Shown here piece by piece: positions 563 through 19,060 of a stretch of DNA of 64,000 nt. The stretch comes from Planctomycetota bacterium (GTDB taxonomy: Bacteria > Planctomycetota > Phycisphaerae > WQYP01), in the NCBI GenBank assembly GCA_021819825.1, contig JAKAEZ010000011.1, positions 6,209 through 70,208 of the forward strand, read 5' to 3'. The notes under the pieces were generated by a model that was not told the DNA's origin, did not search any database, and worked only from the letters and a program-made list of their open reading frames with translations. The position numbers and the translations under genes are program-made. Position 1 is the first letter of the stretch. Each line of letters starts with the position of its first letter.

Positions 563-3500
563 ATGGGCAGGAGACACGCATTGCAGGTTAATGGTGAGCA
601 ACTCCAAGAGGTGTTGAAGCTTTACGATGCGGGTCAATACCTTCAGGCTTATGAGCGGGGATGCAGCCTGGCACCCTTGCCACAGTGGAAAGGCGTTGCC
701 GGGCGGATCATGGCGGGCCGGCTGGCGGGAAATCTGGGTGGGGGGAAGATGGGAATAGTCTTGCACTATTTAGCCTATCGCGAACATCCCGATGAACCGG
801 AGGCCTGGTATTATTATGCGTTTGTGATTTTAGGTTGGCGCGGCCCCCTGGAAGCGTGGCAATTTCTTCGCGACCATTCGATGCCCCATAGTGCGTCACT
901 GGAATTGCAGGCACATTGGTACGCCATAAAAGCTCGAATTCTGGGAACGATGCGCGACTTTAAAGGCGCACACCGCATGCTGGCCGCCGCTGAAGAGATG
1001 CATCCGGATGATGCGTGGCTTGCCGTGGAGCATAGCAGCGTATTGGAGCGGGAGGATCGCTATGATGAGGCTCTGTCTGTAATCATGCGGGGATTGGAGA
1101 TTCGTCCATGGTACCGGCCCGCGGTACAGTCCGCGGCCCATTTGATGCAATTGTTGGATCAGGAAGATCAGTCGCTGGAGCTTTTGCGACAGGCAACGGC
1201 GCGAAATCAAAGTATGGCCCTGGTATTGCAATTGGCCGCCTTGCAAACCGAAATGCGCCTCTATCCGGAAGCCCGGTTGAACTATTCTCGGGCTATTGAA
1301 TTGTCCCCGCTGATGGACAGACAAGTACGTGACTGGCTTTACGGAATGCAGTCGGACGCCGCCTATTTTTGCGCCGATTATTCCGCCGCCGTCGATCTGG
1401 CGGAAAAATCTAAAAATCGTTTCTATCAGAAAATTGCCGCTAAATTAAAATCCGCTGAGAAAGATGGCAAGCGGGTCATGTTGCCGGTGGGTTTTGTACG
1501 GCAACATCACCTGACGTGCGGACCGGCGGTGGTGGCCTGCCTCGGGCGATTCTGGCAAAAGCCGGTGGATCAGCAGACGCTGGCAAAAGAAATCTGTTAC
1601 GACGGCACGCCCAATCACGCACTGCGGCAATGGGCCAATGAGCACGGTTGGCTGGTACGCGAATTTCGCGTGACATGGGAGGCCGCCAAGTCGCTTATTG
1701 ACCGGGGCATACCCTTTGCGATTTCTACGGTGGAGCCTGGCAACGCCCATCTGCAGGCCGTTATCGGCTACGATGATCTGCGCGGAACATTGATAATTCG
1801 CGATCCCTATATTCGTCCTGTGGTCGAATTTGTCTCGGATATCACGCTGGAACGCTACGCCTCGACCGGGCCGCTGGGAATTGTACTGGTCCCGGAGGAG
1901 AAAAAGCAGCTTCTGGATCAAGTCAGCTTGTGCGACGAATCGCTTTATGATCAACTTCACGCCCTGAATGCCGCATTACACCGACATGATCGTGATGCCG
2001 CCTGTGCGGCCTGTGCCAACCTGCGGGCCTCGGCACCGGAACACCGCCTGACGCTTACGGCCCAACAGGCTATTGCCGCGTACGATGCCGATCCCGTGGC
2101 GCTGCTTGATTGTTATGAGAAACTTCTTGCCCTGTTTCCGGCGGATTCCGGACTGTTGATCGCGAAGCTGCAATGCCTGAAGACTTTGGCGCGTCGGGAT
2201 CAACGCATCGACATGCTTGGAACAATATGCGCCTCTTCAACCGCGCATCCGATATTCCGGGAGATGTATGCCAAGGAATTGATGCATGACGCGCGCCAAC
2301 ACACCGCGGTCCGCCGGATGTTGCGCCGGGTCATTCGAGCAATGCCGCTGGCCGCCAATGCCTATTCGGATTTGGCCTCCATATTCTGGGAGCAGCGCCG
2401 CTTTGAGGGGTCTGTGGAACTTTATCGGTTCGCGTGCTGCCTCGACGATAAAAATGAGGACTTTGCGCGTTCTTATTTTGTCGCTTGTCGGCACTTTAAG
2501 CAGGAATCCGACGTGCTGGAAATGCTCAGGGAGCGATTTAAGCAATTCGGTGCCACGACCGGGCGTCCGGCCGAAATGCTGTTTTGGGCCTTGGACGCAT
2601 TGGATCGCACCACTGAGGCTTTCGCCCTGCTGGACGAGGCCCTTGGCTTACGCCCAGAAGATGGATCGCTGTTGCTGCTGGCCGCCGACAACAATGCTCG
2701 CCACGGCCGATTAACCCAGGCGGAGGCCTGCATGGCACGAGCCAAAGGGCTTTGTGCGGAACGTGAATGGTTGCGGGTAGCAGCGGATATGGTGCTCTAC
2801 AAAGGTGACCCGCGCGAGGCTCTCGGACTGTGGCAAAAAATTGTGGACGCCGAACCCCTGGCAATGGACGCTCTGCGCAGGGTGACAGAACTGTTGGTAC
2901 AAAGCGTTGGCACCCAGGCTGCCGAGTCCTATCTGGATGCCCATTGCGCCCGGTTTCCGCACCACTATCCTCTTCTGCAGTTGCGGGTCATCTGGTTCCG
3001 GGATCAACTGCCGCACCGTTATGAAGCGGCGGTTCGACAATTAATACACTTGCATCCGCAGGACGGCTGGTCGCGTCGGGAACTGGTGGCGGCCCTGCTG
3101 GCTTTGCAGCAGTTTGACCAGGCCGCCGCCGAGGCGGAAATGGCCCTGACGTTGGAGCCTAACAATCCCGCGGGGCATTACTATTCCGGGTTGGTGACTT
3201 TACGGCGCGGAAATCCGTCCGAGGCGGTGGCCGCGTTCAAGCGGGCAATCACACTGTCGGTCGACTACACCCCGGCCATTCATGAGTTGCTGGCCAGTGA
3301 AAATTCTCCGGCCCAACGGAAGGCCGCTCTGGCGTTTGTACATGCCGAGATTGTCCGCCAGACGATTTTTGGGGAATGTCTCACAGCGTATCGCGAGCAG
3401 GCCGCGCAAATACTTGATGCCGACGAGGTGCTTGCGTCCCTTCAGGCCGCACTGCGGGCACGACCGGATTTATGGCAAGCCTGGTCCGGTGTAACGCTGC

Positions 3501-5554
3501 AACTCACGCAGATGGGAAAACTTGATGACGCCCAACGCCATGGCTGTGCCGCTGTGGAAAAGTTCAGCCTGTTGCCCGCACTGTGGCTGGATTTGGCCGG
3601 GGTGTATCGGGCGATGGCGGATGCGGATCGTGAGCAAAGCGCATTGCGGCAGGCGCTGGAGATTAATCGATGCTGGAGCGTTCCCGCCCGGCAACTCGCC
3701 GCGCTGCATATTCGCGCTGGTGATCTGGTGAGTGCCCGAACCGTGTTGGAAGAAATTATTTCCCGCAGCCCCTTCGACGTGCGAAATCAGGGCATGCTGG
3801 CCGATGTGCTTTGGCGAATGGGAGTGCGGCAAAAAGCGATCCAGCAATTACAGCAGGCGTTGGAGCGTGAACCAAACTACCCCTGGGGCTGGGACGCACT
3901 TAGAAATTGGAGCCGCGAACTCAATGAACCGGACGCTCCCCTGGCGTTAGCCCGGCGACTTACGGTCAGTCACGGCGGTGACAGCCGCATGTGGCTGAAT
4001 CTGGCACACATGCTGTATCTGCCCGAACAACAGGAAGAACGGATGGCCGCTTATCATCGGGCCATCGCGGCTGATTCGCGTTGTGCCGAGGCCTACGATG
4101 AACTCGCCACCGCATTGGCCGAAGCGGGGCGTCTGGAAGAAGCGCTGGCGGCATGTCACCCCGCGGTATTCAACGGCGATATACCGTTCGAGTTGCGCGG
4201 TCGCGCCGCTTGGATTCAGTACCAGCGGGGAAACCGTCATCAGGCCATTGAGGATATGGCAGCCCTGACCCGCGAGTCGCCCCGTTATTTCTGGGGAATC
4301 TGTCGCCTGGCGGATTGGTATCAGGTCGCCGGCGATAAAAACCAATATCTTCGCACCGCTGAAACGCTCGTTCGCACGTGGCCCGTCAGTGCCGTGGCAC
4401 ATGGCTATCTCGGTGATGCGCAGCGCGGAAAAGGTGCCATACCGGAAGCGCACAAAAGTTTCCAACGCGCTGTGGAGCTGGATGCCGCCTATACCTTCGC
4501 CATTGAGAACCTTCTGGAAATGGATTTGGCGGCCGGTAACGTTTCCGATGCGGCAAAATGGGAAAAGCAACTGGAGCAACACGCCACCGCCGAACGCTCC
4601 GCCCTGGCCCGGCTGCAAATTGCCGCCGCACGCAAGGATAAGAAAATGGCGATGGTTGAACTCCAGGCGTTGTGCCGGATATCTTCCGCCCCAACCTGGA
4701 TGCTCGAGCGGGCGCTGGACGTGCTGGTTGGAAAAAAATGGAGTGATTCAATCGGATATTACGTCCGTGGCGCGTTGGATCACGATGATTGCAACCCGCG
4801 GATCAGTGAAGTGTGTGTACGTTGCCTGGCGCGGCATCGGCAGTGGAAACTGTGCCGAGCGTTCGTCGCCTCTTTAGATACGCGCACCGATAATTTTCGC
4901 CCAGCCATGCTCGAATTTATTCAACAGATTGTCAACAGCAATAACTTCGCGATGCTCGGATGGCTTATTCGTCGTTACCACAAGGTATTGCATGAAAATA
5001 CAGCGTTATGGGGAAAAATTGGCTATGCCTTGAAACGTTTTGGTCGTCATCGCAGGATTATCAGGTGGATGCGGGATTGGCGCCAACGCCCGGACGTAAA
5101 AGCATGGATGCTGGGCAACCTTGCCGCAACGTACCGCGCTATGGGCAGCCGGGCTAAGGCCACGGAGGTTAGTACATTCGCCATGAAAATCGACGGGGAT
5201 CCCGCGGACCGCACGATCCATGCCCTGTGGCTGGCTGCGGACGCCGCCGTTCTTAAGCGACTCGACAGCGCCCAGGCGTGGTTATCACAAGCCGGCATCT
5301 CGCCCAACAGTCCGCCGCATCACCAGTTTATTCAAGCGATCACGGACGCCGCGCTGCAGCGGCTCCGTGAACCGACAACACCCTTCTCCAGTACGAAGGC
5401 GCAAATGGCCGCGGCCATCAAATTATATCCCGCGTTTCGCAAAACCCGTGAAATAAAATTCCTCTATTGCCAAATTCTCACGCGAATTTCCAGATCAAGC
5501 AGTGGTCTTTCCGGTATGATATGGTGCTGGCGGCAGATAGTTCGCGCGCTTTAA
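563..5554 (+). CDS. 1663-aa TPR-repeat protein with an embedded C39-like (papain-fold) cysteine peptidase domain
   Basis: This is the longest uninterrupted ORF in the region. It has many TPR-like helical repeats (A/Y/L periodicity, e.g. ..AEAYDELATALAEAGRLEEALAA..). All antisense ORFs over it are short and compositionally odd. Confidence 0.8.
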   Translation: MGRRHALQVNGEQLQEVLKLYDAGQYLQAYERGCSLAPLPQWKGVAGRIMAGRLAGNLGGGKMGIVLHYLAYREHPDEPEAWYYYAFVILGWRGPLEAWQFLRDHSMPHSASLELQAHWYAIKARILGTMRDFKGAHRMLAAAEEMHPDDAWLAVEHSSVLEREDRYDEALSVIMRGLEIRPWYRPAVQSAAHLMQLLDQEDQSLELLRQATARNQSMALVLQLAALQTEMRLYPEARLNYSRAIELSPLMDRQVRDWLYGMQSDAAYFCADYSAAVDLAEKSKNRFYQKIAAKLKSAEKDGKRVMLPVGFVRQHHLTCGPAVVACLGRFWQKPVDQQTLAKEICYDGTPNHALRQWANEHGWLVREFRVTWEAAKSLIDRGIPFAISTVEPGNAHLQAVIGYDDLRGTLIIRDPYIRPVVEFVSDITLERYASTGPLGIVLVPEEKKQLLDQVSLCDESLYDQLHALNAALHRHDRDAACAACANLRASAPEHRLTLTAQQAIAAYDADPVALLDCYEKLLALFPADSGLLIAKLQCLKTLARRDQRIDMLGTICASSTAHPIFREMYAKELMHDARQHTAVRRMLRRVIRAMPLAANAYSDLASIFWEQRRFEGSVELYRFACCLDDKNEDFARSYFVACRHFKQESDVLEMLRERFKQFGATTGRPAEMLFWALDALDRTTEAFALLDEALGLRPEDGSLLLLAADNNARHGRLTQAEACMARAKGLCAEREWLRVAADMVLYKGDPREALGLWQKIVDAEPLAMDALRRVTELLVQSVGTQAAESYLDAHCARFPHHYPLLQLRVIWFRDQLPHRYEAAVRQLIHLHPQDGWSRRELVAALLALQQFDQAAAEAEMALTLEPNNPAGHYYSGLVTLRRGNPSEAVAAFKRAITLSVDYTPAIHELLASENSPAQRKAALAFVHAEIVRQTIFGECLTAYREQAAQILDADEVLASLQAALRARPDLWQAWSGVTLQLTQMGKLDDAQRHGCAAVEKFSLLPALWLDLAGVYRAMADADREQSALRQALEINRCWSVPARQLAALHIRAGDLVSARTVLEEIISRSPFDVRNQGMLADVLWRMGVRQKAIQQLQQALEREPNYPWGWDALRNWSRELNEPDAPLALARRLTVSHGGDSRMWLNLAHMLYLPEQQEERMAAYHRAIAADSRCAEAYDELATALAEAGRLEEALAACHPAVFNGDIPFELRGRAAWIQYQRGNRHQAIEDMAALTRESPRYFWGICRLADWYQVAGDKNQYLRTAETLVRTWPVSAVAHGYLGDAQRGKGAIPEAHKSFQRAVELDAAYTFAIENLLEMDLAAGNVSDAAKWEKQLEQHATAERSALARLQIAAARKDKKMAMVELQALCRISSAPTWMLERALDVLVGKKWSDSIGYYVRGALDHDDCNPRISEVCVRCLARHRQWKLCRAFVASLDTRTDNFRPAMLEFIQQIVNSNNFAMLGWLIRRYHKVLHENTALWGKIGYALKRFGRHRRIIRWMRDWRQRPDVKAWMLGNLAATYRAMGSRAKATEVSTFAMKIDGDPADRTIHALWLAADAAVLKRLDSAQAWLSQAGISPNSPPHHQFIQAITDAALQRLREPTTPFSSTKAQMAAAIKLYPAFRKTREIKFLYCQILTRISRSSSGLSGMIWCWRQIVRAL
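1475..1912 (+). other. C39-like cysteine peptidase core inside the TPR protein
   Basis: The segment VGFVRQHHLTCGPAVVACLGRFW...GNAHLQAVIGYDDLRGTLIIRDPY carries Gln313 (1499-1501), Cys319 (1517-1519), His396 (1748-1750) and Asp414 (1802-1804). Their spacing and context match Peptidase_C39 / C39_2 (Q-x5-CG ... H-x-x-V-x-GYD ... I-x-DP). Confidence 0.6.
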
Positions 5555-5593
5555 GCGGCAAACTGCAAAAGGCCGGCGTGGCAGTGAGGCGGT

Positions 5594-6424
5594 ATGAAAA
5601 TACATGGCGTATCTGATCTGATCACAAACCTTCACGGCGGCTCTGGAAACCTCTTAGGCCGGAGCGGGCATAGGATCGCTGTGGCCGTTTTTGGCCTCTT
5701 GACGTTTGTGTTGCTTCCCGGCGGGGCAACGCTTATTGCCCGACCAAGTGCCCCGGGGGCCGCCAATGGGGAACTGGTAAGGACGCTCGCCGCGATGAGA
5801 TTCGTGAAATCAATTCAGTCAGCATTTTTGTGCGAAAAGAAGTTGCGGGTGCTTCGGAAGCCCTTTTTCAGCAAGGGAATTATTACCATCGCCCGGCCCA
5901 GGCAGGTTCGCTTTGAAACGATTTGGCCCTATCGCTCGTGCTATATTCTTAATAAGCGACATATTGACATGCGTAATGAATCTAATTCGCATTGGCGCAC
6001 CGGGTCGGTGGATTCGCAGCCGGCGATCGGGATGATGATGCGGCAATTCGCGGCCTGGTCTTTGGGAAACATTGGTAAAGTCAGCCGGAAATATCAGGTC
6101 AGCGTGCGGCGTGCCACGCGTCGGGTCCCACAGGATGCTCCCGCCGGCTCCCCGTCGAGTAACCATAAGCCAACACGCTTAACACTTGAACTCTTTACTT
6201 TGCGCCCGCTTAGCGGAGTGCTCAAAGAAGCTATCCATGAGATTCAGCTTGGTTTTGCCACGTCAGCGGGCCAGGGTGCCGCGCGGCGGCAAGCCGCCGC
6301 TAAGCCATTAAAATATATCCGTATTGTGGCAAAAAATGGGGATCAAAGCATCTTCTGGTTGCGCCGCACGCAACTGAATCCGCAATTAAGGCCGCAGTGT
6401 TTTGCGCCGGTAGGGCCGCCATGA
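5594..6424 (+). CDS. LolA-like (outer-membrane lipoprotein carrier-like) protein with an N-terminal hydrophobic signal/anchor
   Basis: The segment FVKSIQSAFLCEKKLRVLRKPFFSKGIITIARPRQVRFETIWPYRSCYILNKRHIDM fits the LolA-like pattern F-x-Q...L..P..S.G.......R.....P. Its TGA overlaps the next ATG (ATGA at 6421-6424). Confidence 0.5.
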   Translation: MKIHGVSDLITNLHGGSGNLLGRSGHRIAVAVFGLLTFVLLPGGATLIARPSAPGAANGELVRTLAAMRFVKSIQSAFLCEKKLRVLRKPFFSKGIITIARPRQVRFETIWPYRSCYILNKRHIDMRNESNSHWRTGSVDSQPAIGMMMRQFAAWSLGNIGKVSRKYQVSVRRATRRVPQDAPAGSPSSNHKPTRLTLELFTLRPLSGVLKEAIHEIQLGFATSAGQGAARRQAAAKPLKYIRIVAKNGDQSIFWLRRTQLNPQLRPQCFAPVGPP

Positions 6425-9400
6425 GCGAACCGACTAGCCAAAGCGAGGCGAGCGCTTCCGGTACTAAGCCTGATCCACTTGCGCGATGGATGATCTGGTG
6501 GTATGGACGATTGCAGGCTCACCGAATTGTTTTAAGCGTGGTGCTTTTGATTCTTGGCGTGCTGCTGTTTGCCGCGTCGCGAAACATCGTGTGGCAGACC
6601 AGTCTGCTGAGTTTTTTTTCCTCGCACAGCGCCGCGATTCATGATGTGCGACTGTCCGAGGATCGTAACGGTTTGGCCGATGCCATGCGGTTGGACGTGC
6701 ATTTTGCTTCGGGGCGAAAAGGGAATTTAGGCCTCGCGGTGCGATTGCTGGCGCAAGACCTGAAAAACTCCCACGTGTTTTCCAAACTTTGGTACGGCGC
6801 GCCGGTATCGCAGCAACTCAAAGTACAGGCGGATTTACAGAATATCGCGCCAATTCTCCTTACACGGCCGCAATTCATTACGCTTCGCCATCGGTTGTCC
6901 GCACACTGGCTGGATCATTATTTTCACCGGCAAGTGCGGAAAATGGCGGGACCGGCCGGGCAAATGGTTGCCGCGGAATTGCAGGCTGATCCATTGGATA
7001 TGCGGCAACTGCTGCTGGCGCAATTTAAATCCGTTCATGCGGGGGCGGGATCACACTTTTCCGGCCCGCTGCTGGTGAGCAGCAATGGCCGCCACGCGAT
7101 GATGATCCTGGTGCCTCCCTTCAGACCGGAGAATGTCGCGGCGTCTGAAAAAATGCTCGGCACCATTCGCTCTGCGATTGGTTCGGTAAAAAAGCACATG
7201 CCCGCTTTACGCGTCTGGATCGTGGGGCCTTATCGTAATTTTGTTGAGAATCAACGGCTGGTGAAGCGTGATCTGAAAATGATTTCAATGGTCGGATCGC
7301 TGCTGGTGGCCGGGGTTATCGCGTGGTATTTCCGGCGCATCGGTTCGGTGGTTCTCTGCATGATTCCGCCCATGATGGGGCTGGGTGCCGCATTGGGCCT
7401 TGCGGGTCTATTGAGCCTGCATATTCCGCTCATCGTTCTGGGGTTTGATGGCCTGCTGTGCGGAGCCACGACCGATTACGGCATACAGCTTATTGCGGCA
7501 CTGCAGCGGCAGGCCGATCAGGTTGGGCACTACCGGGCGGATATGCCGGCTTTAGCGGCCAGAGATCTATTTGGTCCCATATCCATGAGTGTATGTACCA
7601 GCATGACGGGCTACGGAGCACTGGCCGCCAGTTCAGCCCCGGGGTTGCGGACGTTGGGACTTTTTATCGCCGGTGCCACCGGCTGTATCTGGCTGGTAAC
7701 TTTTCTGGTTTTGCCGGCTTATCTGGGAGCCTGGGTAAGCTGTCCCCGGGGGCACACACTCAAGCCGCTTTGCAACGCCGCACACGTGGGCCGGCACCGA
7801 TTAATTAAGCCATTGGGACTGCTTGGTTTTGCCTTGATAACGCTTTGGCTTGGCAGTCGGGCACTGGCGGTGGGTTTTACGGCTAACGGGCAATCCTTAG
7901 ATGGTTCGTCCGCGGCCCTTAAACATGACGAGGCCGAATTTTCCTCTGTGTGGGGGCATTTGCGGCAATCAGGTGTGATTACAATTCACCAGGCGTCCGC
8001 GGACGGGGCCTTAACGGAACTGCACACGTTTGATCACCTGCTTGGCGTGCTCCAAGCTAAACGATTAATTGCGGGGTATACCACGGCCGCGGCCATTCTT
8101 CCCGATACCCATCTCGCGCAACGGCGATTAACCGCGTGGCGGTCATTTTTTACGTCTGAACAAATAGAGCATGACCGGGCGCTCCTGGCGCATGCCGCCT
8201 TAGCCAATGGCTTGCGGGCTAGCGCGTTTCAAGGCGCATTAAAGTCCTGGCAGGTGGCGCAGCGTGCTCCCTCCGCGTTGCATCGGTTACAGCAATCACC
8301 GGCAACTTTGTTTCCCGGCGTAATTAATATTCGCCCGCATGACATTTCCATTTCTTCAACCGTGCAACTTAATACATCTCTGTCGCCAAAGCTTGCCACG
8401 CGATGGGCTGCCGATGTACGGCATGATGTTCCCGGCGTTTCCATCATTTGCGGGCAGGTGCTGTATCTGAACGCATCGCATCATGCCCAGTTGGAAGCCA
8501 GGCGATTATTCCCCTGGGTGACACTGTTTATTTTAATTCCCATGTGGATTTATTTTCGGCGGCTGGATATTGCGGCGATCGCCGCACTTTCCCTGGGCAT
8601 CGGTTTTATCTGGCTGTTGGGCGTAGCGCAGTGGTGGGGAGGCGGCTTAAACCTTCTTTGTCTGGTACCAATACTTTTTACCATGGGGGTGGCTGTGGAT
8701 TATGGCATCTATGCCGCCAGCGATCCATCTCTGCGGCCCGGCGGCGGCATGATGCAAAATCGGAATTCCGCGACATTCCTTTGCGCCGCAACCACGATTC
8801 TGGGCACAGCGGCAATGATTCTGGCAAGTCACCCTGTTCTGCATTGGATTGGTATGACGCTGACGGCTGGAATTCTGGGCGGGTATCTGGCGAGTTATTT
8901 TGTCGTGGGACCCCTGGTAAGGATTGTTCTTAATCCACCGGCAGCGCCCAAACGCAGAGGGATTTACCTGAAGATATTAAATGCGTGGCGAATCATCGTG
9001 GTGCTGGCGATGGTGATGCTGGTGATCGGTCTATTGGCAGGCTGTTGCAATGTGCGACCGCCGCGGGCCTATCGCCCTCCCATGGCTCCCGCGCCAACCA
9101 CGGCGGCGGCACATCGCGCATTGTCGAAATTTCCACGACGATGGGATCGGCAATTTTTTGCAGCACTGGACTGGCGCGGTCATCGCGTAAGCATGATCGG
9201 CAGAATAAAAGGAAACTCGCCAGGCACGCTGCGCGTTACGTGTGCGTCAGAATTTGGAACACTGCTTTGTGACGTGCGAGTGGCGGCAAACCGTTGTCAG
9301 GTCCTGCACAAGGCCGCGGCATTTCCGAAGGCTCTGGCACGGCATATTGGGGTGGATACCGCCTTGGCGCTGCGCTTGCCTGTAGCGGCGGCATTACGGT

Positions 9401-9627
9401 TGAAACATTTTCGTCGTGGCACGCACTTACTTTCCGGAACTCTTCATCAGACATGTTATATATTTGCCGGGCCGGCTGGAAAGTTGCGGGGTTGTCATCT
9501 GCGCCAGTCGCGACAGAACTTTGAAATGCAATATTTGCACTATCAGCGTGGCTATGTTCCGCACAAGGTAATTATCTGGGATGCTGGCGATTGTTTACTG
9601 TTGACTATAAACTTTGATGCGAAATAG
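6421..9627 (+). CDS. MMPL/RND-superfamily predicted exporter fused to a C-terminal lipoprotein-like domain of about 190 aa
   Basis: The protein has two bundles of about 6 TM helices separated by large soluble loops, which is MMPL/COG4258-like topology. The C-terminal part begins with KRRGIYLKILNAWRIIVVLAMVMLVIGLLAGCC, a lipoprotein-signal-like segment. The start is set at ATG 6421, which overlaps the upstream stop. The ORF track starts this ORF at 6397. Confidence 0.7.
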   Translation: MSEPTSQSEASASGTKPDPLARWMIWWYGRLQAHRIVLSVVLLILGVLLFAASRNIVWQTSLLSFFSSHSAAIHDVRLSEDRNGLADAMRLDVHFASGRKGNLGLAVRLLAQDLKNSHVFSKLWYGAPVSQQLKVQADLQNIAPILLTRPQFITLRHRLSAHWLDHYFHRQVRKMAGPAGQMVAAELQADPLDMRQLLLAQFKSVHAGAGSHFSGPLLVSSNGRHAMMILVPPFRPENVAASEKMLGTIRSAIGSVKKHMPALRVWIVGPYRNFVENQRLVKRDLKMISMVGSLLVAGVIAWYFRRIGSVVLCMIPPMMGLGAALGLAGLLSLHIPLIVLGFDGLLCGATTDYGIQLIAALQRQADQVGHYRADMPALAARDLFGPISMSVCTSMTGYGALAASSAPGLRTLGLFIAGATGCIWLVTFLVLPAYLGAWVSCPRGHTLKPLCNAAHVGRHRLIKPLGLLGFALITLWLGSRALAVGFTANGQSLDGSSAALKHDEAEFSSVWGHLRQSGVITIHQASADGALTELHTFDHLLGVLQAKRLIAGYTTAAAILPDTHLAQRRLTAWRSFFTSEQIEHDRALLAHAALANGLRASAFQGALKSWQVAQRAPSALHRLQQSPATLFPGVINIRPHDISISSTVQLNTSLSPKLATRWAADVRHDVPGVSIICGQVLYLNASHHAQLEARRLFPWVTLFILIPMWIYFRRLDIAAIAALSLGIGFIWLLGVAQWWGGGLNLLCLVPILFTMGVAVDYGIYAASDPSLRPGGGMMQNRNSATFLCAATTILGTAAMILASHPVLHWIGMTLTAGILGGYLASYFVVGPLVRIVLNPPAAPKRRGIYLKILNAWRIIVVLAMVMLVIGLLAGCCNVRPPRAYRPPMAPAPTTAAAHRALSKFPRRWDRQFFAALDWRGHRVSMIGRIKGNSPGTLRVTCASEFGTLLCDVRVAANRCQVLHKAAAFPKALARHIGVDTALALRLPVAAALRLKHFRRGTHLLSGTLHQTCYIFAGPAGKLRGCHLRQSRQNFEMQYLHYQRGYVPHKVIIWDAGDCLLLTINFDAK

Positions 9628-9642
9628 TATGAGGGACACCCT

Positions 9643-10965
9643 GTGAAGAACAATCGCACATCAGGTAATAGATCAGGCAAAAGACACACGGGGCAGGTCG
9701 GCGGGCATTTATTCTGGCCGGTAGAACGCTGGCAGGCCTTGCAGCTTGATGCCCTGCGCCGGCATATTAGCCACGCGGGCAAGTCCACCTATTACGCCGG
9801 GGTGCTTCCCGGTACCATTCAGTCGTTGGAACATCTTGTTGAATTTTCGCTGACGCATAAAGATCAGTTGGCCGCGGCAGGCGACGCCGCCTTTGCCTGC
9901 AAAAGCCAAGATGTGCGGGAGTGGGTTACCACTTCCGGTACCACCGGTAAGCCGTTGCGCGTTCCACTGACCGAGAGCGATCTGCATCGCCTGGCGGAGA
10001 ATGAGGCCGTTGCCTTGAACATTGCCGGGCTAAACCGGGGCGATACTCTGATTCTAGCCTTGGCGCTGGATCGTATGTTTGTTGCGGGTTTGGCATATTG
10101 GCTGGGCGCACAGAAATTAGGCGCGGCATGTATTCGGGCGGGGGCCGCATATTGTGCGCAGCTCGACATTTTACAATCTCTTGTGCATCGCGGTGCCCGG
10201 ACGTTTGTCATCACCGTTCCATCGCTATTGGCTGGTGCCGGAAACGCGGCGTCCCGTGATAGGCCAGCGCCGGAAATTCAGGCCGTTATCGGAATTGGAG
10301 AACCATTGCGCACCGCCGCGCTGGTCCCCAATGCTTTGGCGTTGCGCTTGATGGATAAACTTGGGGTGCCGGCGATTAGCACCTATGCGTGTACGGAAAC
10401 CTGCTCCACTTTTGCGGAGGGACCGTTGTGTGTGGGGGGGCATTTGAATCCCGCGCTGGCGGTTGTGGAAATAATAAATGAGCAAGGCTCTCCCGTCGCC
10501 GCCGGCACCATGGGAGAGGTAGTCGTTACACCGCTGGGGGTGGAGGGTATGCCGCTGGTACGCTTCTGCACCGGTGATATCGCCGCACTGTATACCGATC
10601 CATGCCCATGCGGCCGCACCACTCCGCGCCTCGGGCCGATATTGGGAAGAAAGCGGCAATTATTAAAGGTGCGCGGTTCGAGTTTATTTCCATCGGCGAT
10701 TGCCGACTGCCTCAATGGGATCCCGGAGGTGCGGGACTACGCCATTATTGCCCATCGGGAGCATGATTTAAGTGATCGCATAGAACTGCACGTTTGCTTA
10801 ACCAAAAGCAGCTCCGCCATTCGTGAGCGCCTGGCCTTAACCGTTCGGGCGCTGTTAAAAGTTCAGCCAAAAATTATCTTTTCGAGCATCTCCGCCATCC
10901 GCGAGTTGCAAAGCGCTGCCAACCCCCGCAAACCCGCGCGATTTATTGATCGACGCGTTTCCTGA
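9643..10965 (+). CDS. Phenylacetate-CoA ligase-like (PaaK / coenzyme F390 synthetase family) adenylate-forming enzyme
   Basis: It carries the AMP-binding core motif TSGTTGKPLRVPLTESD, and its size (440 aa) and overall layout match COG1541-type ligases. The start is GTG 9643, 12 nt after a gaggga RBS-like sequence. Confidence 0.7.
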   Translation: MKNNRTSGNRSGKRHTGQVGGHLFWPVERWQALQLDALRRHISHAGKSTYYAGVLPGTIQSLEHLVEFSLTHKDQLAAAGDAAFACKSQDVREWVTTSGTTGKPLRVPLTESDLHRLAENEAVALNIAGLNRGDTLILALALDRMFVAGLAYWLGAQKLGAACIRAGAAYCAQLDILQSLVHRGARTFVITVPSLLAGAGNAASRDRPAPEIQAVIGIGEPLRTAALVPNALALRLMDKLGVPAISTYACTETCSTFAEGPLCVGGHLNPALAVVEIINEQGSPVAAGTMGEVVVTPLGVEGMPLVRFCTGDIAALYTDPCPCGRTTPRLGPILGRKRQLLKVRGSSLFPSAIADCLNGIPEVRDYAIIAHREHDLSDRIELHVCLTKSSSAIRERLALTVRALLKVQPKIIFSSISAIRELQSAANPRKPARFIDRRVS

Positions 10966-10984
10966 AACGTGCTTGCGGTATAAT

Positions 10985-11671
10985 ATGGGAATGAATCAGA
11001 TGCCGACTCCCAAACATGACGCCACGGACTTACTGCAAACTCAGTCTGGGAAGCTTGCCATTGAACCGTTATCTGTCCCGTTGCTGGCGACTTTTATAAC
11101 CTGTGGATTTTACATGCTGTTGCCACGGACCATGATGCTAGGTCCGCCTTGGCTGCTGTTAATTGTGGTTACGGCCGTGTTGATTCCGTTGATTATTTTC
11201 CGATTGCGGCAGCGTTTTTTCCTCAGCCATGTGTGCGGCCACATTTCCGCGGCCCTTATTACGCTGTTCACCGGGTATTCACTATTGGCACTGGTACGGG
11301 ATTTGCCAACACAACATGATACGCCCATCCAGATGCTCAGAGCGGCGGGAATGCTTTGGATGATTAACGTTCTGATTTTTTCCTTTTGGTACTGGCGGCT
11401 TGATGGCGGGGGGCCGCACGCGCGGGCTTCGCGCGGCCACTACCAGACGGGGTGTTTTTTATTCCCCCAGATGACCATGCGAAACGGTGATCCATCCTGG
11501 TCTCCGCGATTTCTGGATTATTTATTCGTCGCTTTTACCACCAGCACCGCCTTCTCCCCAACCGATACGCCCGTGCTTTCCCGCTGGGCCAAACTCTTGA
11601 CCATGTTGCAGGCCATTATTTCACTGGGCATTGTGGTGTTAATTGCCGGTCGGGCGATCAATATTATTTAA
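10985..11671 (+). CDS. Polytopic membrane protein, DUF1345-like
   Basis: It has 4-5 hydrophobic helices. The C-terminal segment FLDYLFVAFTTSTAFSPTDTPVLSRWAKLLTMLQAIISLGIVVLIAGRAIN resembles the DUF1345 signature (DFLYFSFT.G.T...SD). The start is set at the first ATG. The track ORF begins at 10946. Confidence 0.45.
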   Translation: MGMNQMPTPKHDATDLLQTQSGKLAIEPLSVPLLATFITCGFYMLLPRTMMLGPPWLLLIVVTAVLIPLIIFRLRQRFFLSHVCGHISAALITLFTGYSLLALVRDLPTQHDTPIQMLRAAGMLWMINVLIFSFWYWRLDGGGPHARASRGHYQTGCFLFPQMTMRNGDPSWSPRFLDYLFVAFTTSTAFSPTDTPVLSRWAKLLTMLQAIISLGIVVLIAGRAINII

Positions 11672-11997
11672 AGGCTTCCCCAATAGCGGGGCAGATTCAT
11701 ACCCTGAATTATCCAACATGCGTGGCAATATTTCCCGGCATGCGGAGTGATCGACGGCATCAATGCCCGCGCTAAGAAAAATGGCGGGTCTTGGAAGCTC
11801 GCGCCGCGGAGGCCTGCCCGGGTTTATTGCCAGCCACAATCCAACCGCCGCCTGTTTCCCCCATTGATTCTCCGGCCTCGGGGCGCTAACATCTCAAGTG
11901 TGTTGGAGGAATTAACCAATACCGGCTGCCGCCGATGAGTAACGGACCGGCGATGGCAGGAAGTACATTCGTGTTGTAGATCGTGATGAGGATAAAC

Positions 11998-13419
11998 ATG
12001 GCCAATCCCCCTTCCGCGCGTACTGTAGCTGAACTAAAAAAAATGCCGTATCAACCCTGCTCGGTGAAAGATGAGTTGCGGCGTAACGTCATCGCCGCTC
12101 TGCGGACCGGTAAACCGTTATTTCCCGGTATTGTGGGCTACCGGGAGACAGTCATTCCCGAGATCGTCAATGGCATTTTGAGCCGGCATGACATGCTTTT
12201 TCTGGGTCTGCGCGGGCAGGCTAAAACGCGGCTCCTGCGAATGCTGCCGGATTTACTGGATCCATGGATTCCCGTTCTGGCACAATGTGAAATCCCGGAT
12301 GATCCGCTGGACCCGCATTTGGCTTCGGGAAAAAAAATCATTGCCGAGCAAGGCGATAATGCGGCCATAGAATGGGTGCATCGCAGCAATCGCTACCATG
12401 AAAAGCTTGCCACACCGGATGTCACCATTGCCGACTTAATCGGGGAAATTGATCTGGTGCGCCATGCGCAGGGGCGTTATTTATCGGATGAAAGTACCAT
12501 GCACTTTGGCTTGATCCCGCGCTGTAATCGCGGCATATTTGCCATGAATGAACTGCCCGATCTGGCTCCCAAAATTCAAGTCGGACTTTTTAACGTGCTG
12601 GAAGAGCGCGACGTGCAGATTCGCGGTTACCCCATTCGCCTGGACCTGGACCTGTGCATGGTATTTTCCGCCAACCCCGAGGATTACACCAATCGCGGCC
12701 GCATTGTGACACCGCTGAAAGACCGTATCGGCACGGTGGTGCGGACCCACTATCCGCATACCATTGGCGAAGCCATTAAAATCACACAGGACAATGCATG
12801 GCTGGAGCGCGACAGCGGCGTTCAGGTGACTGTTCCGCTTTATATGCATGAAATCCTCGAGGAATTTGTTCGCTTGGCGCGGCAAAGCCCGCATATTAAT
12901 CAGGCCAGCGGCGTAAGTGTTCGGTGTTCGATTACCAATACGGAAAATCTGGTCAGCTCCGCCGAGCGGCGCGGCATTGTGCATGGGGAAAACAGGGTCA
13001 CTGCGCGGACGGATGATCTGCCATTTATCCATGCCAGTTGCCGGGGAAAAATTGAACTCATGCTGGCGGAAGGTGAATCCGCGGAAGATAAACTGGTGAC
13101 CTCCCTGATCGGGGAAGCGGTGAAGCTGGTGTTCAGCCGGCAGGCTGATATGGATGATTTCGATGACATTTGCCAGCAATTCAAAGGCGGCTTGACGTTG
13201 CAGGTGGGCGATGAAGTTTCCACCGCCACCATGCTGGAAAATTATGCGCATATCAAAGGCCTGAAGGCCGCGGCGGCACGAATGGCCGGCAAATTGGGTA
13301 TGGCCTCCGATGATTCCGCATCGCTGGTAAGTGCCGGCGAATTTATTCTTGAGGGGTTGTACGTCAACAACCGCCTGAGCAAAGTGAATATGCCGGGAAA
13401 AACTTTTTTCAGGAAATGA
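11998..13419 (+). CDS. AAA+ ATPase of the Mg-chelatase ChlI-like / sigma-54-interaction-domain family
   Basis: It has a Walker A-like GLRGQAKT, a Walker B-like IFAMNELPDL, and a conserved VGYRETVIPEIVNGILSRHDMLFLG N-terminus. The sequence gagga lies 5 nt upstream of ATG 11998. Confidence 0.65.
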   Translation: MANPPSARTVAELKKMPYQPCSVKDELRRNVIAALRTGKPLFPGIVGYRETVIPEIVNGILSRHDMLFLGLRGQAKTRLLRMLPDLLDPWIPVLAQCEIPDDPLDPHLASGKKIIAEQGDNAAIEWVHRSNRYHEKLATPDVTIADLIGEIDLVRHAQGRYLSDESTMHFGLIPRCNRGIFAMNELPDLAPKIQVGLFNVLEERDVQIRGYPIRLDLDLCMVFSANPEDYTNRGRIVTPLKDRIGTVVRTHYPHTIGEAIKITQDNAWLERDSGVQVTVPLYMHEILEEFVRLARQSPHINQASGVSVRCSITNTENLVSSAERRGIVHGENRVTARTDDLPFIHASCRGKIELMLAEGESAEDKLVTSLIGEAVKLVFSRQADMDDFDDICQQFKGGLTLQVGDEVSTATMLENYAHIKGLKAAAARMAGKLGMASDDSASLVSAGEFILEGLYVNNRLSKVNMPGKTFFRK

Positions 13420-14191: not shown

Positions 14192-15385
14192 ATGCAGCGA
14201 GAATCTGAAATTCCCATGCCCCAGGTAAGCCGTAGAGAATTTGCGATGCGGGTTGCCTTGGCCGCAGGTGTTCTTGCGACCGGTTCCACCCATCTGGTTC
14301 GTGCCGCGGTATCCTGGAATCAATTGCCGGTTTCGCCGCTGGTCCATGCTGATCGCCGCGTGACATTTCTGTTTCAGGATGCCGGGGCAAAAACTGTTAT
14401 TCTGGAAATGGGCGGAATTCCCCCGATACCGCTGAAAAAAAATGTCCATGGCATGTGGGCGGTTACCGTCGGGCCGTTGGCACCGGAAATATATACCTAC
14501 GCCTTTTCTGTGGACGGTGCGCGGGTGCTGGATCCCTTGAATCCCTGGGTAAAGCCAAACCTGTTTTATTCTGCCAGCATGGTTCTTGTTCCCGGAAATC
14601 CGCCATCCCTTTGGCAGGATTGTAACGTGCCGCACGGTGTGGTTCACCGGCATTTTTATCATTCTAAAGTCGTCGGCGATAATCGCGATTACTATGTCTA
14701 TACGCCGCCAGGATATCGCGGTGATAGTTCGCAAAAATATCCGGTTCTCTATCTGCTGCACGGCTACAGCGATCTGGCGGACGCCTGGACCAAGGTGGGA
14801 AGGGCCAATTTTATTCTGGATAATCTTATTGCCCAGGGAAAAGCCCGGAAAATGATTGTGGTTATGCCGCTGGGGTATGGAGATTTGCGGGTTATTTCCC
14901 GCACGGGGCCGGGCCTGGGGCAGCCGCAGTTGTATCAAAGCAATCTGAAAAAATTCCAGGCCACGTTGCTGACGGAAGTCATGCCGCGCATCGCCCGGCA
15001 ATATCGGATTCACAGCCACCGCGATCAAACCGCGATTGCCGGTTTATCCATGGGGGGCGGGGAGTCTTTGTCAATGGGGTTAAATAATCTCAATCGCTTC
15101 GCGTGGATTATCGGCATGAGTTCCTACTTGAATACCAATGGTCCGGACTTTTCCAGCGTTTTCCCGACATTAAATAAAAGCGATAACGCCCGAATCAAAT
15201 TGCTGTGGATCGCCTGCGGAAAACAGGATCCCATTGTGGCCAAAGCCAACCATAATCTCGACGCCTGGATGACCGCCAAAGGAATTAAATTTACACCCGT
15301 CTGGACGCCCGGTCAGCACGCCTTTCGCGTGTGGCGGGGAAATCTTTCCGCGTTCGCGCCATTGTTGTTTCAATCCAAAGCGTAA
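14192..15385 (+). CDS. Secreted esterase (esterase D / enterochelin-esterase-like fold, CE1-like) with an N-terminal E-set/CBM48-like domain
   Basis: It has a Tat-like signal (SRREFAMRVALAAGVLATGS), YVYTPPGY...YPVLYLLHGYSD, and the nucleophile elbow GLSMGG. The RBS gaggag lies 7 nt upstream. Confidence 0.75.
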   Translation: MQRESEIPMPQVSRREFAMRVALAAGVLATGSTHLVRAAVSWNQLPVSPLVHADRRVTFLFQDAGAKTVILEMGGIPPIPLKKNVHGMWAVTVGPLAPEIYTYAFSVDGARVLDPLNPWVKPNLFYSASMVLVPGNPPSLWQDCNVPHGVVHRHFYHSKVVGDNRDYYVYTPPGYRGDSSQKYPVLYLLHGYSDLADAWTKVGRANFILDNLIAQGKARKMIVVMPLGYGDLRVISRTGPGLGQPQLYQSNLKKFQATLLTEVMPRIARQYRIHSHRDQTAIAGLSMGGGESLSMGLNNLNRFAWIIGMSSYLNTNGPDFSSVFPTLNKSDNARIKLLWIACGKQDPIVAKANHNLDAWMTAKGIKFTPVWTPGQHAFRVWRGNLSAFAPLLFQSKA

Positions 15386-15573
15386 TGTTCGTAGCCTGAT
15401 GCGGCAGCATCATGGTTGGTTGCGGAACGGGGTTTGCTGAAAATAGCGAATGTCATAGTCCATTGCTGCGCTGGTGCTGCCGAAGTGGTTATGGCGCAGA
15501 CTGGCATAATATCTCGCATCCAACTTGATGCTTCCGCATCAAGCTAATGTGCGGTATGGCGCGTGGTTATGCG

Positions 15574-15610
15574 CCAAAACAAAACCGGCCGGGATTTCAA
15601 CACCGGCCGG
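15574..15610 (-). terminator. Rho-independent terminator of the pseudopilin-like gene
   Basis: The minus strand reads CCGGCCGG-tgttgaaatc-CCGGCCGG followed by TTTTGTTTTGG, about 58 nt downstream of the stop at 15668. Confidence 0.55.
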
Positions 15611-15667
15611 TGGGATTTACCGCGTCTGATGGCCCTGCCATCAGATGCAAGAAAGGAAAAATTGTAA

Positions 15668-16645
15668 TTAATGGTCTTGGAAATCCTGGCTGAATATCTG
15701 CCGCCACCCAGTGGTAACCGGAGCAGGCGGATTCCCTCCCGCGGCCCATGCCGGCGCACCCGAGATCGCCGGCACGATTGTGGGTTGGCCGGCCGGTGCC
15801 CAGGTGTCGGGCCACTTCACCGTCTGGCAATGGCCGTCGAGGTATGCGACGTTAAATTCACCCGAGTGGATCGTCGTATTAATGTTGTTGGTATCATTTG
15901 TACCTTTGTTGGGGTTGTTGGTGTAGCCCAGCGCTTCGGGGGCGGTGGAACTCCAAGTTGCGACATCCGGCGTTGTTTGCCAGCCCGCTGAGTACCCACC
16001 ATCACAAATAACGATCGATTGTGACGGCGCGTTGACGCTGCTGATGGCGTAGGCGTTATAGCCCGGTTCGTTAAAGGGCTTGGTCGCTGCGACGTCTTCC
16101 GGCTGGTTGCTAGCGTTCAATCGGTACGATCCGGGGAGATTCTGATAAGGCTGTGCTGCCGCCAACGAAAGTGAGGAGTAACGCAAGTTTCCGTTTCCGG
16201 ACCTGTTGTAATCGTCCTGAGTATCGGCTGGATCCTGCAGGACGCTAAACGTTACGTACTTGTCGACGACAAGCACCTGATCCCAGTTTAACGGGGAGGC
16301 AGCGCCAAGTGTCAGGTTCGTGCTGTATCCCCACGCCTGCGGAGCGCCGTAATACGCCCCGTCAGAAACTGTCGTATTACCGGCTACCCCGTACCCATTA
16401 TTCTGCCCCTTGACCATATAGCCGTTATGCTGATGGGCGAACATAAGTAGTGATTGGGCGATAGTTCTTTGATTGGCCAGGCAGGCCACGGTCTCAGATT
16501 CCGCTTTGGCGGCTGCCAAGGCCGGGATCAGGATCGCTATAAGGATGGCGATAATAGATACAACCACAAGAATTTCGATGAGCGTAAATGCCCCGCGGGA
16601 TATTCTACGGGACAGTGAACCGGTTTGGGGAAGTTTATTGGCCAT
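15668..16645 (-). CDS. Prepilin-type N-terminal cleavage/methylation domain protein with DUF1559 and an H-X9-DG motif
   Basis: It carries SRGAFTLIEILVVVSIIAILIAILIPAL (N_methyl motif) and a C-terminal FNVAYLDGHCQTV. The start is set at ATG 16645, preceded by gaggaa. The track ORF starts at 16696. Confidence 0.8.
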   Translation of the reverse strand: MANKLPQTGSLSRRISRGAFTLIEILVVVSIIAILIAILIPALAAAKAESETVACLANQRTIAQSLLMFAHQHNGYMVKGQNNGYGVAGNTTVSDGAYYGAPQAWGYSTNLTLGAASPLNWDQVLVVDKYVTFSVLQDPADTQDDYNRSGNGNLRYSSLSLAAAQPYQNLPGSYRLNASNQPEDVAATKPFNEPGYNAYAISSVNAPSQSIVICDGGYSAGWQTTPDVATWSSTAPEALGYTNNPNKGTNDTNNINTTIHSGEFNVAYLDGHCQTVKWPDTWAPAGQPTIVPAISGAPAWAAGGNPPAPVTTGWRQIFSQDFQDH

Positions 16646-16890
16646 GGGCGTTTCCTCTCGTAAAAATTGTAGGACCTTCACTCCTGCCGGCCGCATCGCG
16701 ATCTTCGGCTCTATATAGAATGGTACATCATATAGAGGTAGAAAGTAAAGAAAAAAACGTAGTATTTTCCTTATCGGGCGACCCGCCGGCCCGCAGGACC
16801 GGTAAAAACTGGCTCTCCAGCATTTGCCGGCCTAGAATAAATTAGCCTTCGCAGTGGTTCGATGGCGTGAAAACTATTTTGGAGTTGAAT

Positions 16891-17932: not shown

Positions 17933-19060
17933 CTACGCCCGGCCGCGCCAGGCGATGTTTTTGCCCAGCAGTTGCCGCAGCCAGGCGTACCACTGAATAA
18001 CCACCAGCAGGCAAATTCCCAACGGATGCAAAATGGCTCCGAGCGTTGATTGGCGAAACCGGATCGTCAGAAGCATCCGCGGCAAGTAAACAAGCCCGGT
18101 CGCAAGCGCTGCGCCGGCAATGATGACTGGGGCGGCGTGCAGCAGCACTGCGGTGATCAGCAAAATTAACGGCACAACTTGGCCGCCCAGAAGAATAATC
18201 GTTGCCGGAACAATCATTTTTCGCGATGCCAATGCCTCGGTTGCGTTTTTCGCCAATCCATGAAATACCTCTCCGGCGGTGTGATACATCCGACATGATG
18301 CTAAGGCGGTGGCGTCAAAAATATCGGTGGCAAATCCCGCTTGCCGAAAGGCGCGCGGCAGTGTGATTCCGTCATGGCGGGAAGCACGGATGGCGCTATG
18401 CCCGCCGACGGCCATATACGCCGATTTCCTGGCGATAAATAATTGTCCGCAACCGGCACTGTACGCCGGGGAGTTACTTTTTCTCATCCGATTCAGCGGG
18501 AGAAAACCCAGGAGAATAAAGTACATCAGGGGAATCAGCAGTTTTTCAAACAAGCTGCCGGTTTTCTGCAACGGAAATCCGCTGGCCAGTGCCGTCTCGC
18601 TGGTCTGCATGAATCCGGCCATGCGCGCCAGGGCCTGGGGCGCAAGTTCAACGTCGGCATCCATAAATACCATCAGATCATAGTGGGCTTGCTGGGCCAA
18701 TTGCCAGCACGCGTGCTGTTTGCCGCACCAGTTCTCCGGCAGCGCGGAAGAGTTTATCAGGGTGATGCGGGAATCTTTCACGGCCAGAGTTTGTACAATA
18801 TCTTCGGTTGCGTCGGTGGATTGGTCGTTGAGAATAATTAATTCAAGCGTCACATCTTGATTGGCCAGAACCGATTGCATCGCCGTCCGGATATGGTTGG
18901 CTTCATTTCGGGCGGGGATCAGAACGGATAGTTCAGGGGCGTGGCCGTGCGATGTGCCCGGCTCAGGTGCGCGAAATAAGGAAAGATTCACCGTCAGCAG
19001 CGCGGCCGGAACTCCCGCCAGAAACAGAGCCATAATCACTAAAATCAGCAGCATTATCAA
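17933..19060 (-). CDS. Family-2 glycosyltransferase with C-terminal TM helices (CrtQ/CruC-like or aryl-polyene-cluster type)
   Basis: It has LSVLIPARNE, ILNDQSTD and FMDADV (the DxD region), and is 375 aa with membrane helices at both ends. The start is either TTG 19060 or ATG 19054. It abuts the upstream stop (TGA 19059-19057). Confidence 0.7.
   Translation of the reverse strand: MIMLLILVIMALFLAGVPAALLTVNLSLFRAPEPGTSHGHAPELSVLIPARNEANHIRTAMQSVLANQDVTLELIILNDQSTDATEDIVQTLAVKDSRITLINSSALPENWCGKQHACWQLAQQAHYDLMVFMDADVELAPQALARMAGFMQTSETALASGFPLQKTGSLFEKLLIPLMYFILLGFLPLNRMRKSNSPAYSAGCGQLFIARKSAYMAVGGHSAIRASRHDGITLPRAFRQAGFATDIFDATALASCRMYHTAGEVFHGLAKNATEALASRKMIVPATIILLGGQVVPLILLITAVLLHAAPVIIAGAALATGLVYLPRMLLTIRFRQSTLGAILHPLGICLLVVIQWYAWLRQLLGKNIAWRGRA

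Follow-up and report, generated by a model that had tools for sequence, protein, structure and literature searches.

A LolA-like, MMPL-DUF3261 and FlxY-type ligase module in Phycisphaerae as the probable transport and starter-activation half of a split aryl-polyene/flexirubin-like pathway

Known systems and the module in the window

In the aryl polyene (APE) clusters, ApeL is a LolA-like protein, ApeM an RND transporter, ApeN a DUF3261/LolB-like protein and ApeH a synthetase that activates acyl groups for the acyl carrier protein (ACP) (PMC8253772; bioRxiv 10.1101/2020.12.19.423268). In E. coli CFT073 and Xenorhabdus doucetiae the first three genes stand in the order LolA, MMPL and DUF3261, and ApeM belongs to the RND/MMPL "APPE" family. 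The flexirubin clusters of Chitinophaga pinensis and Flavobacterium johnsoniae contain the ligase FlxY together with LolA, exporter, acyltransferase and polysaccharide deacetylase genes (flxP-flxU), and 4-coumarate-CoA ligase activity has been proven for FlxY only in Chitinophaga, where the enzyme starts flexirubin synthesis (PMC3992019). For Phycisphaerae, "arylpolyene" calls of the antiSMASH type are already known, while the colour of cultured planctomycete strains is attributed to carotenoids (PMC8882080); in the literature on planctomycetes we found no report of a pigment lipid of the aryl-polyene type. Here we analyzed a module of three genes at 5594-10965 of a 64-kb stretch of planctomycete DNA (contig JAKAEZ010000011.1; the whole stretch is called the window), which encode a LolA-like protein, an MMPL transporter fused to a DUF3261-type domain and an adenylating ligase. 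The system belongs to the known APE/flexirubin-type family and has a variant architecture: the genes are divided between two loci, ApeM and ApeN are fused, the ligase is of the FlxY type and the core is minimal. The module is quite probably the transport and starter-activation half of a split APE/flexirubin-like pathway, the core of which very likely lies intact elsewhere in the genome.

The three genes are co-directional and lie head to tail on the forward strand. The putative LolA-like periplasmic carrier of the ApeL type (5594-6424; 276 aa) has an N-terminal hydrophobic signal or anchor at about residues 27-48, and its stop codon overlaps the start codon of the MMPL-DUF3261 open reading frame (ORF) (6421-9627; 1068 aa) in an ATGA at 6421-6424. 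A gap of 15 nt (9628-9642) separates this ORF from the gene of the PaaK/FlxY-type adenylating enzyme (9643-10965; 440 aa), presumed to be an aryl-acid starter ligase. A preliminary description, made from the sequence alone, had reported these reading frames, the ATGA coupling and the 15-nt gap, all of which agree with the ORF coordinates and the junction sequence. It had also named four functions; they are all present, but the DUF3261 lipoprotein is the C-terminal domain of the MMPL protein and not the product of a separate gene. Annotation with Pfam and NCBIfam, which the description had suggested, did not scatter the proteins over unrelated families, and profile and fold comparisons support its view that they are homologous to those components of APE and flexirubin clusters which serve export and activation.

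The LolA-like protein scores 20.1 bits with Pfam LolA, under the cut-off of 23.6, and its best NCBIfam match is the flexirubin LolA2 family (LolA2_flexi, 28.8 bits). Its family alignment was compared with ApeL of E. coli CFT073 by hhalign, which gave a probability of 97.4% (E 1.5e-11), and its AlphaFold model (predicted local distance difference test, pLDDT, 79) has LolA as top PDB match (2w7q, E 3.5e-12, template modelling (TM) score 0.69). The transporter matches Pfam MMPL (40.7 bits), and its family alignment reaches 99.9% against E. coli ApeM (hhalign; E 3e-34, 728 columns), although a good alignment is expected between any two MMPL proteins. The possibility of a canonical HpnN, raised in the preliminary description, was rejected: the scores with the HpnN models (TIGR03480, 42.2 bits against a cut-off of 752; NF052374, 18.1 bits against 1100) and with BstA (31 bits against 1400) are far below threshold, and E. 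coli ApeM shares the weak NCBIfam pattern of the window protein (HAE3 about 50 bits, HpnN about 45 bits). Compared at the profile level, the LolA-like protein, the MMPL protein and its C-terminal domain (see below) are homologs of the APE transport triad ApeL/ApeM/ApeN, in the same gene order.

The ligase matches Pfam AMP-binding (49.2 bits). Its best NCBIfam match is FlxY (NF053551), covered over the full length (profile positions 16-424 of 424) with 343.4 bits, under the equivalog cut-off of 520, so it is a relative and not a member of that family; the runners-up are the DVU_1553-family (146 bits) and PaaK (142 bits). The P-loop TSGTTGKP at residue 97 and the C-terminal Lys/Arg motif are intact. 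There is no BLASTP match to E. coli ApeH at E < 0.01, and NCBIfam groups ApeH with the 4-coumarate-CoA-ligase-like ANL enzymes and the window ligase with FlxY/PaaK. These matches make the ligase a FlxY-type (flexirubin) enzyme and not one of the ApeH type, which sets the module apart from the APE cluster. Homologs of the ligase at 49-73% identity adjoin genes for ketosynthase (KS) and chain length factor (CLF), and a 41%-identical homolog is found in locus L008 together with tyrosine ammonia-lyase, halogenase, ketoreductase (KR), KS and ACP genes. In this flexirubin-type locus the ligase is preceded by a 560-aa AAT protein. The sister-clade loci also resemble flexirubin clusters, with polysaccharide deacetylase and PlsC acyltransferase genes adjoining the ligase. 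Unlike in flexirubin clusters, no tyrosine ammonia-lyase, darA/darB (dialkylresorcinol) or halogenase gene lies beside the module or beside the core block described below.

A core block at a second locus

The preliminary description had stated that the module lacks any biosynthetic core, with no KS, ACP, dehydratase or KR gene in the window. We searched the 64 kb by tblastn with the proteins of five related clusters and all 18 E. coli Ape proteins, and it turned out that no KS, CLF, ApeI/ApeP dehydratase, ACP, KR, radical SAM protein or cluster acyltransferase is encoded there. The statement thus holds for the window, but not for the organism. In all of the four closest metagenome-assembled genomes (MAGs), tblastn found the whole seven-gene core intact, always on a contig other than that of the module: module and core are on contigs 531 and 52 of JAKATV01, 114 and 34 of DAHVEJ01, 31 and 4 of JAJZDN01, and 19 and 26 of JAKBCC01, respectively. 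These core contigs were found by a KS search of the genome collection, seeded with KS proteins of the type of L056, a related locus (P0173, P0185, P0180); the KS motif of the window clade is PYNDAM, and that of distant Phycisphaerae follows the pattern [RK]YNDAM. JAKATV01 is conspecific with the window organism, because their DNA is 98.8% identical over 9.2 kb.

The second locus contains KS, CLF, ACP, ApeI and ApeP, but neither a KR nor a second KS. In the E. coli APE cluster, the core proteins are matched by ApeO (37.5%), ApeE, ApeD, ApeI and the C-terminal acyltransferase half of ApeJ. In contrast to that cluster, the LipA-type acyltransferase of the core is without the family 2 glycosyltransferase (GT2) half of ApeJ, the genes are distributed over two loci, and no ApeG, ApeK, ApeQ, ApeB or ApeR homolog is found near the window-clade loci. 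In the antiSMASH-style definition of an APE cluster, all core genes (KS apeO/R, CLF apeC, ACP apeE/F, dehydratase apeI/P, KR apeQ and transporter apeM) belong to one cluster; the window has the transporter only.

The core was also found in the source sample. In run X1, a mine-drainage metagenome, positions 4000-12000 of the window were recovered on one contig with 0 differences at a depth of 28.5, and a single 6316-bp contig with a depth of 30.1 covers the core block (L068:6041-12353). The latter contig shows 97.5% identity to L068; it differs by 158 substitutions and a GGG insertion that keeps the reading frame, and no frameshift was seen. Because the two depths are equal and the divergence is like that between the window and JAKATV01, the window's own genome very likely carries the core block. 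This bears out one alternative of the preliminary description, that the cluster may be split, and speaks against the other, a different and unknown cargo: the core is missing from the window only and not from the organism, so no unknown cargo is needed. The organism is a Phycisphaerales planctomycete of mine-drainage-type habitats; DNA nearly identical to the window occurs in mine-drainage, mine-tailings and sediment metagenomes of several studies (runs X1-X20).

The layout of module and core varies among the related loci. In L056 (ligase 73% identical), an operon of LolA, fused MMPL and ligase stands 303 bp from the core and divergent to it, and the core reads LipA-type acyltransferase, ApeI-like dehydratase, ACP, ApeP-like dehydratase, PlsC acyltransferase, KS and CLF. 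L060 (59%) has a compact cluster with the ligase beside KS/CLF, and the ligase of L005, L006 and L012 (49-55%) adjoins paired KS and CLF genes as well as those of a PlsC acyltransferase and an ApeP-like dehydratase. Among the nearest relatives (L001-L004 and L010) no core gene lies within 10 kb of the module. The contiguous arrangement is probably ancestral, because the outgroups carry the ligase adjoining KS/CLF. In the ligase tree, the window falls into a six-member clade with L001, L003, L004, L056 and L010, in which the order of the contiguous L056 and the split L010 is not separated (support 83/83). KS-anchored loci with the gene order LolA-MMPL-DUF3261 are also present in Desulfobacterota, Sedimentisphaerales and a PVC-group (Planctomycetes-Verrucomicrobia-Chlamydiae) MAG. 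As a side observation, a HEPN and nucleotidyltransferase pair (MNT-type, toxin-antitoxin-like) is inserted in the core cluster of L060 (8381-9107; the same in L061), between the ApeI-like dehydratase and ACP genes.

Just 5.6 kb of the window lie upstream of the module, and the preliminary description had considered that a complete cluster might sit there, making this an ordinary contiguous APE locus with its core beyond the 5' end of the window. We regard this as very unlikely. L002 and L003 reach 2.0 and 3.6 kb past the window start, respectively, with no core gene. The core block is flanked in relatives by ftsY and a gene for 3-deoxy-D-arabino-heptulosonate 7-phosphate (DAHP) synthase, flanks which match neither the window nor the module loci, and the core loci share no DNA with these. 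The contig geometry of JAJZDN01 places module and core at least about 30 kb apart.

Separation from the core would also be expected if the module were a decaying remnant left after the break-up of a cluster, and small metatranscriptomes from the same study showed no expression signal. The selection data contradict such decay. For the window against L003, L004, L010 and L056, the ratio of nonsynonymous to synonymous substitution rates (dN/dS) is 0.24-0.33 for the LolA-like gene, 0.16-0.24 for MMPL-DUF3261 and 0.10-0.15 for the ligase gene. All three genes are under purifying selection, and with dN/dS at 0.10-0.33 the split module is kept by selection. Besides, its reading frames are intact in 7 independent assemblies, the ligase motifs are preserved and the lipobox of the fusion is conserved, so that decay is hardly credible.

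A further explanation is that the module is an autonomous exporter and activator of another acylated lipid, unrelated to the KS/CLF block. The module is physically apart from the core in the window clade, it has acquired a new upstream partner (a giant TPR-C39 protein) in the window, L003 and L010, and it stands alone, with an unfused MMPL, in L011 (59% relative). We consider this explanation unlikely: both loci are intact in all four closest MAGs and occur at equal depth in the source sample, L056 has module and core contiguous at the same divergence, and a starter ligase would have no evident substrate sink if ACP and KS were missing.

Several observations nevertheless weigh against a split APE/flexirubin-like pathway. 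In L011 no core was found within 20 kb of the module or in the MAG search, which leaves room for an independent role of the module; a walk 10 kb further, past the nadD-like gene downstream of the module, also met no KS. No KR, thioesterase or methyltransferase gene was found near either locus, so the pathway as seen is incomplete, and a product other than a classical aryl polyene is possible. The ligase falls short of FlxY membership and has no detectable similarity to ApeH. The C-terminal domain of the window-clade MMPL gives no significant direct match to E. coli ApeN and is linked to it via intermediates only. The presence of the core in the window genome is derived from a conspecific MAG and from equal metagenome depth, and sequence words of the module were not found in three small metatranscriptomes of the same study.

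L011 has another feature: SDR/KR (short-chain dehydrogenase/reductase type) and 4HBT thioesterase genes lie 4-5 kb downstream of its ligase (15242-16810, equal to L055 5382-6950), KR and thioesterase being the two functions that the window clade lacks in its compact core block.

For the split pathway, the following steps can be proposed by analogy with characterised homologs. The FlxY/PaaK-type ligase would adenylate an aromatic carboxylic acid of the 4-coumarate or 4-hydroxybenzoate type and pass it to CoA or to the pathway ACP. KS and CLF, one ACP, the ApeI/ApeP dehydratases and a reductase supplied from elsewhere would turn this starter into a polyene acyl chain, which the PlsC-type and LipA-type acyltransferases of the core locus would attach to a membrane lipid. 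The ApeM-type RND pump would then extract the finished lipid from the inner membrane, the LolA-like carrier would move it over the periplasm, and the LolB-like DUF3261 domain would accept it at the outer membrane. In this lineage the gene of this last component is fused to that of the pump, at the 3' end of the latter, and has kept its signal helix and lipobox; a cut by signal peptidase II is probable.

If this is right, the apparent orphan exporter is explained, and no new cargo or system is required. The Phycisphaerae would have a very compact aryl-polyene-like pathway, with seven core genes and without its own KR, thioesterase and methyltransferase, in which a flexirubin-type (FlxY-like) starter ligase is paired with APE-type elongation and transport genes. 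Such a pathway can be divided into two unlinked loci and still be under selection, and antiSMASH-type cluster miners would miss or mis-score it because of this split.

The DAHP synthase gene, which encodes the entry enzyme of the shikimate pathway, is convergent to CLF in every window-clade core locus (L068 11912-12934; also L062-L067). It might help to provide the aromatic starter, or it may stand there by chance. A rhamnosidase gene takes its place beside CLF in L057 and L059, and the truncated gene at this position in L056 is probably a rhamnosidase as well.

The fused pump and LolB-like lipoprotein domain

The MMPL/RND transporter body of the ApeM type occupies residues 1 to about 852 of the fusion (6421-8976), and the ORF extends about 200 residues beyond its twelfth helix. 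An in-frame internal lipoprotein signal follows (8977-9045), composed of a basic stretch, a 13th hydrophobic helix and the lipobox LLAG-C (Cys875, codon 9043-9045). Behind it, the last 194 residues form a DUF3261/LolB-like domain of the ApeN type (9043-9627), which was assigned by homology and fold.

The tail alone has no direct Pfam match. It shares 29% identity (E 2e-16) with a 240-aa lipoprotein which L011 encodes as a stand-alone gene, after an unfused 841-aa MMPL gene. A profile of the MMPL-tail family picked up proteins from other phyla that are encoded in KS-anchored loci, 3 of which proteins exceed the Pfam DUF3261 threshold, and the tail family aligned with the Pfam-positive DUF3261 proteins at 97.8% (hhalign, E 1e-12). 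The AlphaFold model of the tail (pLDDT 82, predicted TM score 0.80) has LolB structures as its top PDB matches (8cm1, E 6e-7; 1iwm, TM 0.55-0.60). The predicted folds of the carrier and the tail are thus LolA- and LolB-like, as in the APE cluster and in Lol lipoprotein sorting, and the LolB-like part has a lipobox as LolB does. The set differs from the Lol pathway in that it is coupled to an RND pump and not to the LolCDE ABC transporter, that its cargo is presumably a pigment lipid and not lipoproteins, and that its LolB-like part is made as the C-terminal end of the pump. It differs from the APE cluster in that ApeM and ApeN of the window lineage share a single ORF, inside which the lipobox lies.

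The pattern of basic residues, hydrophobic helix and [LVS][AGN]GC is kept in all 7 independently assembled fused versions, which argues that the fusion is real and the lipobox is under constraint; it is absent where the unfused MMPL of L011 ends. Because the internal lipobox is conserved, lipidation and release of the LolB-like domain by signal peptidase II are suggested, and the fusion is probably lipidated and cut after translation. The fuller proposal, that an ApeM-type pump and an ApeN/LolB-like lipoprotein form one polyprotein in which the Cys875 lipobox directs lipidation and cutting by Lgt/LspA, is a tentative one that we put forward with some doubt. If it is true, a single gene would give rise to both an RND pump in the inner membrane and a free lipid receptor in the outer membrane, at a fixed ratio of 1:1, by an internal fusion processed by signal peptidase II within a lipid-export system. 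Alternatively, the domain may remain tethered at the inner membrane, and the accepted model of a LolA-to-LolB handover for aryl-polyene lipids would change. In either case, a pump fused to a LolB-like receptor that has kept its lipobox offers a simple natural test of the assembly of ApeLMN, which is poorly understood.

A different fusion occurs in the sister-clade Phycisphaerae (L006 4831-9327, L012 5896-9330, also L014 and L076), where the C-terminus of an ApeM-type MMPL carries an autoproteolytic acyltransferase domain (C45/AAT) plus TPR repeats. These pump-acyltransferase fusions are 1144-1498 aa long, and the DUF3261 lipoprotein is encoded there by a separate gene. The fusion of L006 matches NCBIfam C45_proenzyme with 143.8 bits.

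Neighbouring genes

A GT2 gene (17933-19060) and, coupled to it, a PlsC-type acyltransferase gene (19057-19845) lie on the reverse strand, and the preliminary description had associated this pair with the module. Its domains, confirmed with Pfam, and its location are as described, but no specific link to the module was found. The cluster acyltransferases and GT2 of L005, L006 and L056 gave no tblastn match to the pair, the GT2 matches the N-terminal half of ApeJ only as a generic GT2 (E 8e-5), and the pair is near the module only in the closest relatives and not in L010, L011, L056 and L060. As it has no detectable relation to the cluster enzymes and its linkage is so limited, we do not count it as part of the cluster; it seems to be a pair of its own for lipid glycosylation and acylation. 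A GT2 for the pathway could be supplied in trans, which is conceivable because the LipA-type acyltransferase of the core is without the GT2 half of ApeJ.

The top NCBIfam matches of this GT2 are HpnB (138.6 bits) and the carotenoid 2'-O-glycosyltransferase CruG (100 bits). Together with the weak HpnN and BstA matches of the pump (42 and 31 bits), this might point to a hopanoid- or sterol-type transporter (HpnN/BstA-like) working with the HpnB/CruG-like GT2 7 kb away. Such a role is highly improbable, as the pump scores are far under 752 and 1400 bits and the same as those of E. coli ApeM, the relatives of the module are in KS/CLF clusters and not in hpn clusters, and the GT2 pair is linked in the closest relatives only. 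Neither hopanoid nor carotenoid genes were found in the window, of which the ORFs of 1-30401 were scanned with Pfam and 30402-64000 was searched by tblastn with APE-cluster proteins only.

A scan for promoters and terminators gave no more sites than in shuffled sequence. On the 3' side of the ligase gene, a DUF1345-like membrane protein of 241 aa is encoded (10946-11671), which is 80-84% identical in L003 and L004. It was tried as ApeG and rejected, being DUF1345-like with no ApeG similarity. The listed TTG start overlaps the ligase gene by 20 nt, and translation more probably starts at an internal ATG (MNQMPTPKH...), which is conserved.

Upstream of the module, the gene of a giant TPR protein with a C39-like peptidase core (563-5554, forward strand; 1663 aa; Pfam TPR families and Peptidase_C39_2, 50.6 bits) ends 39 nt before the LolA-like gene. 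It is a possible operon partner, and its membership is only a candidate one: L003 and L010 have the gene in this upstream position too, and L004, L011, L056 and L060 do not. The TPR-C39 protein may be the functional counterpart of the C45-TPR fusion in the sister clade.

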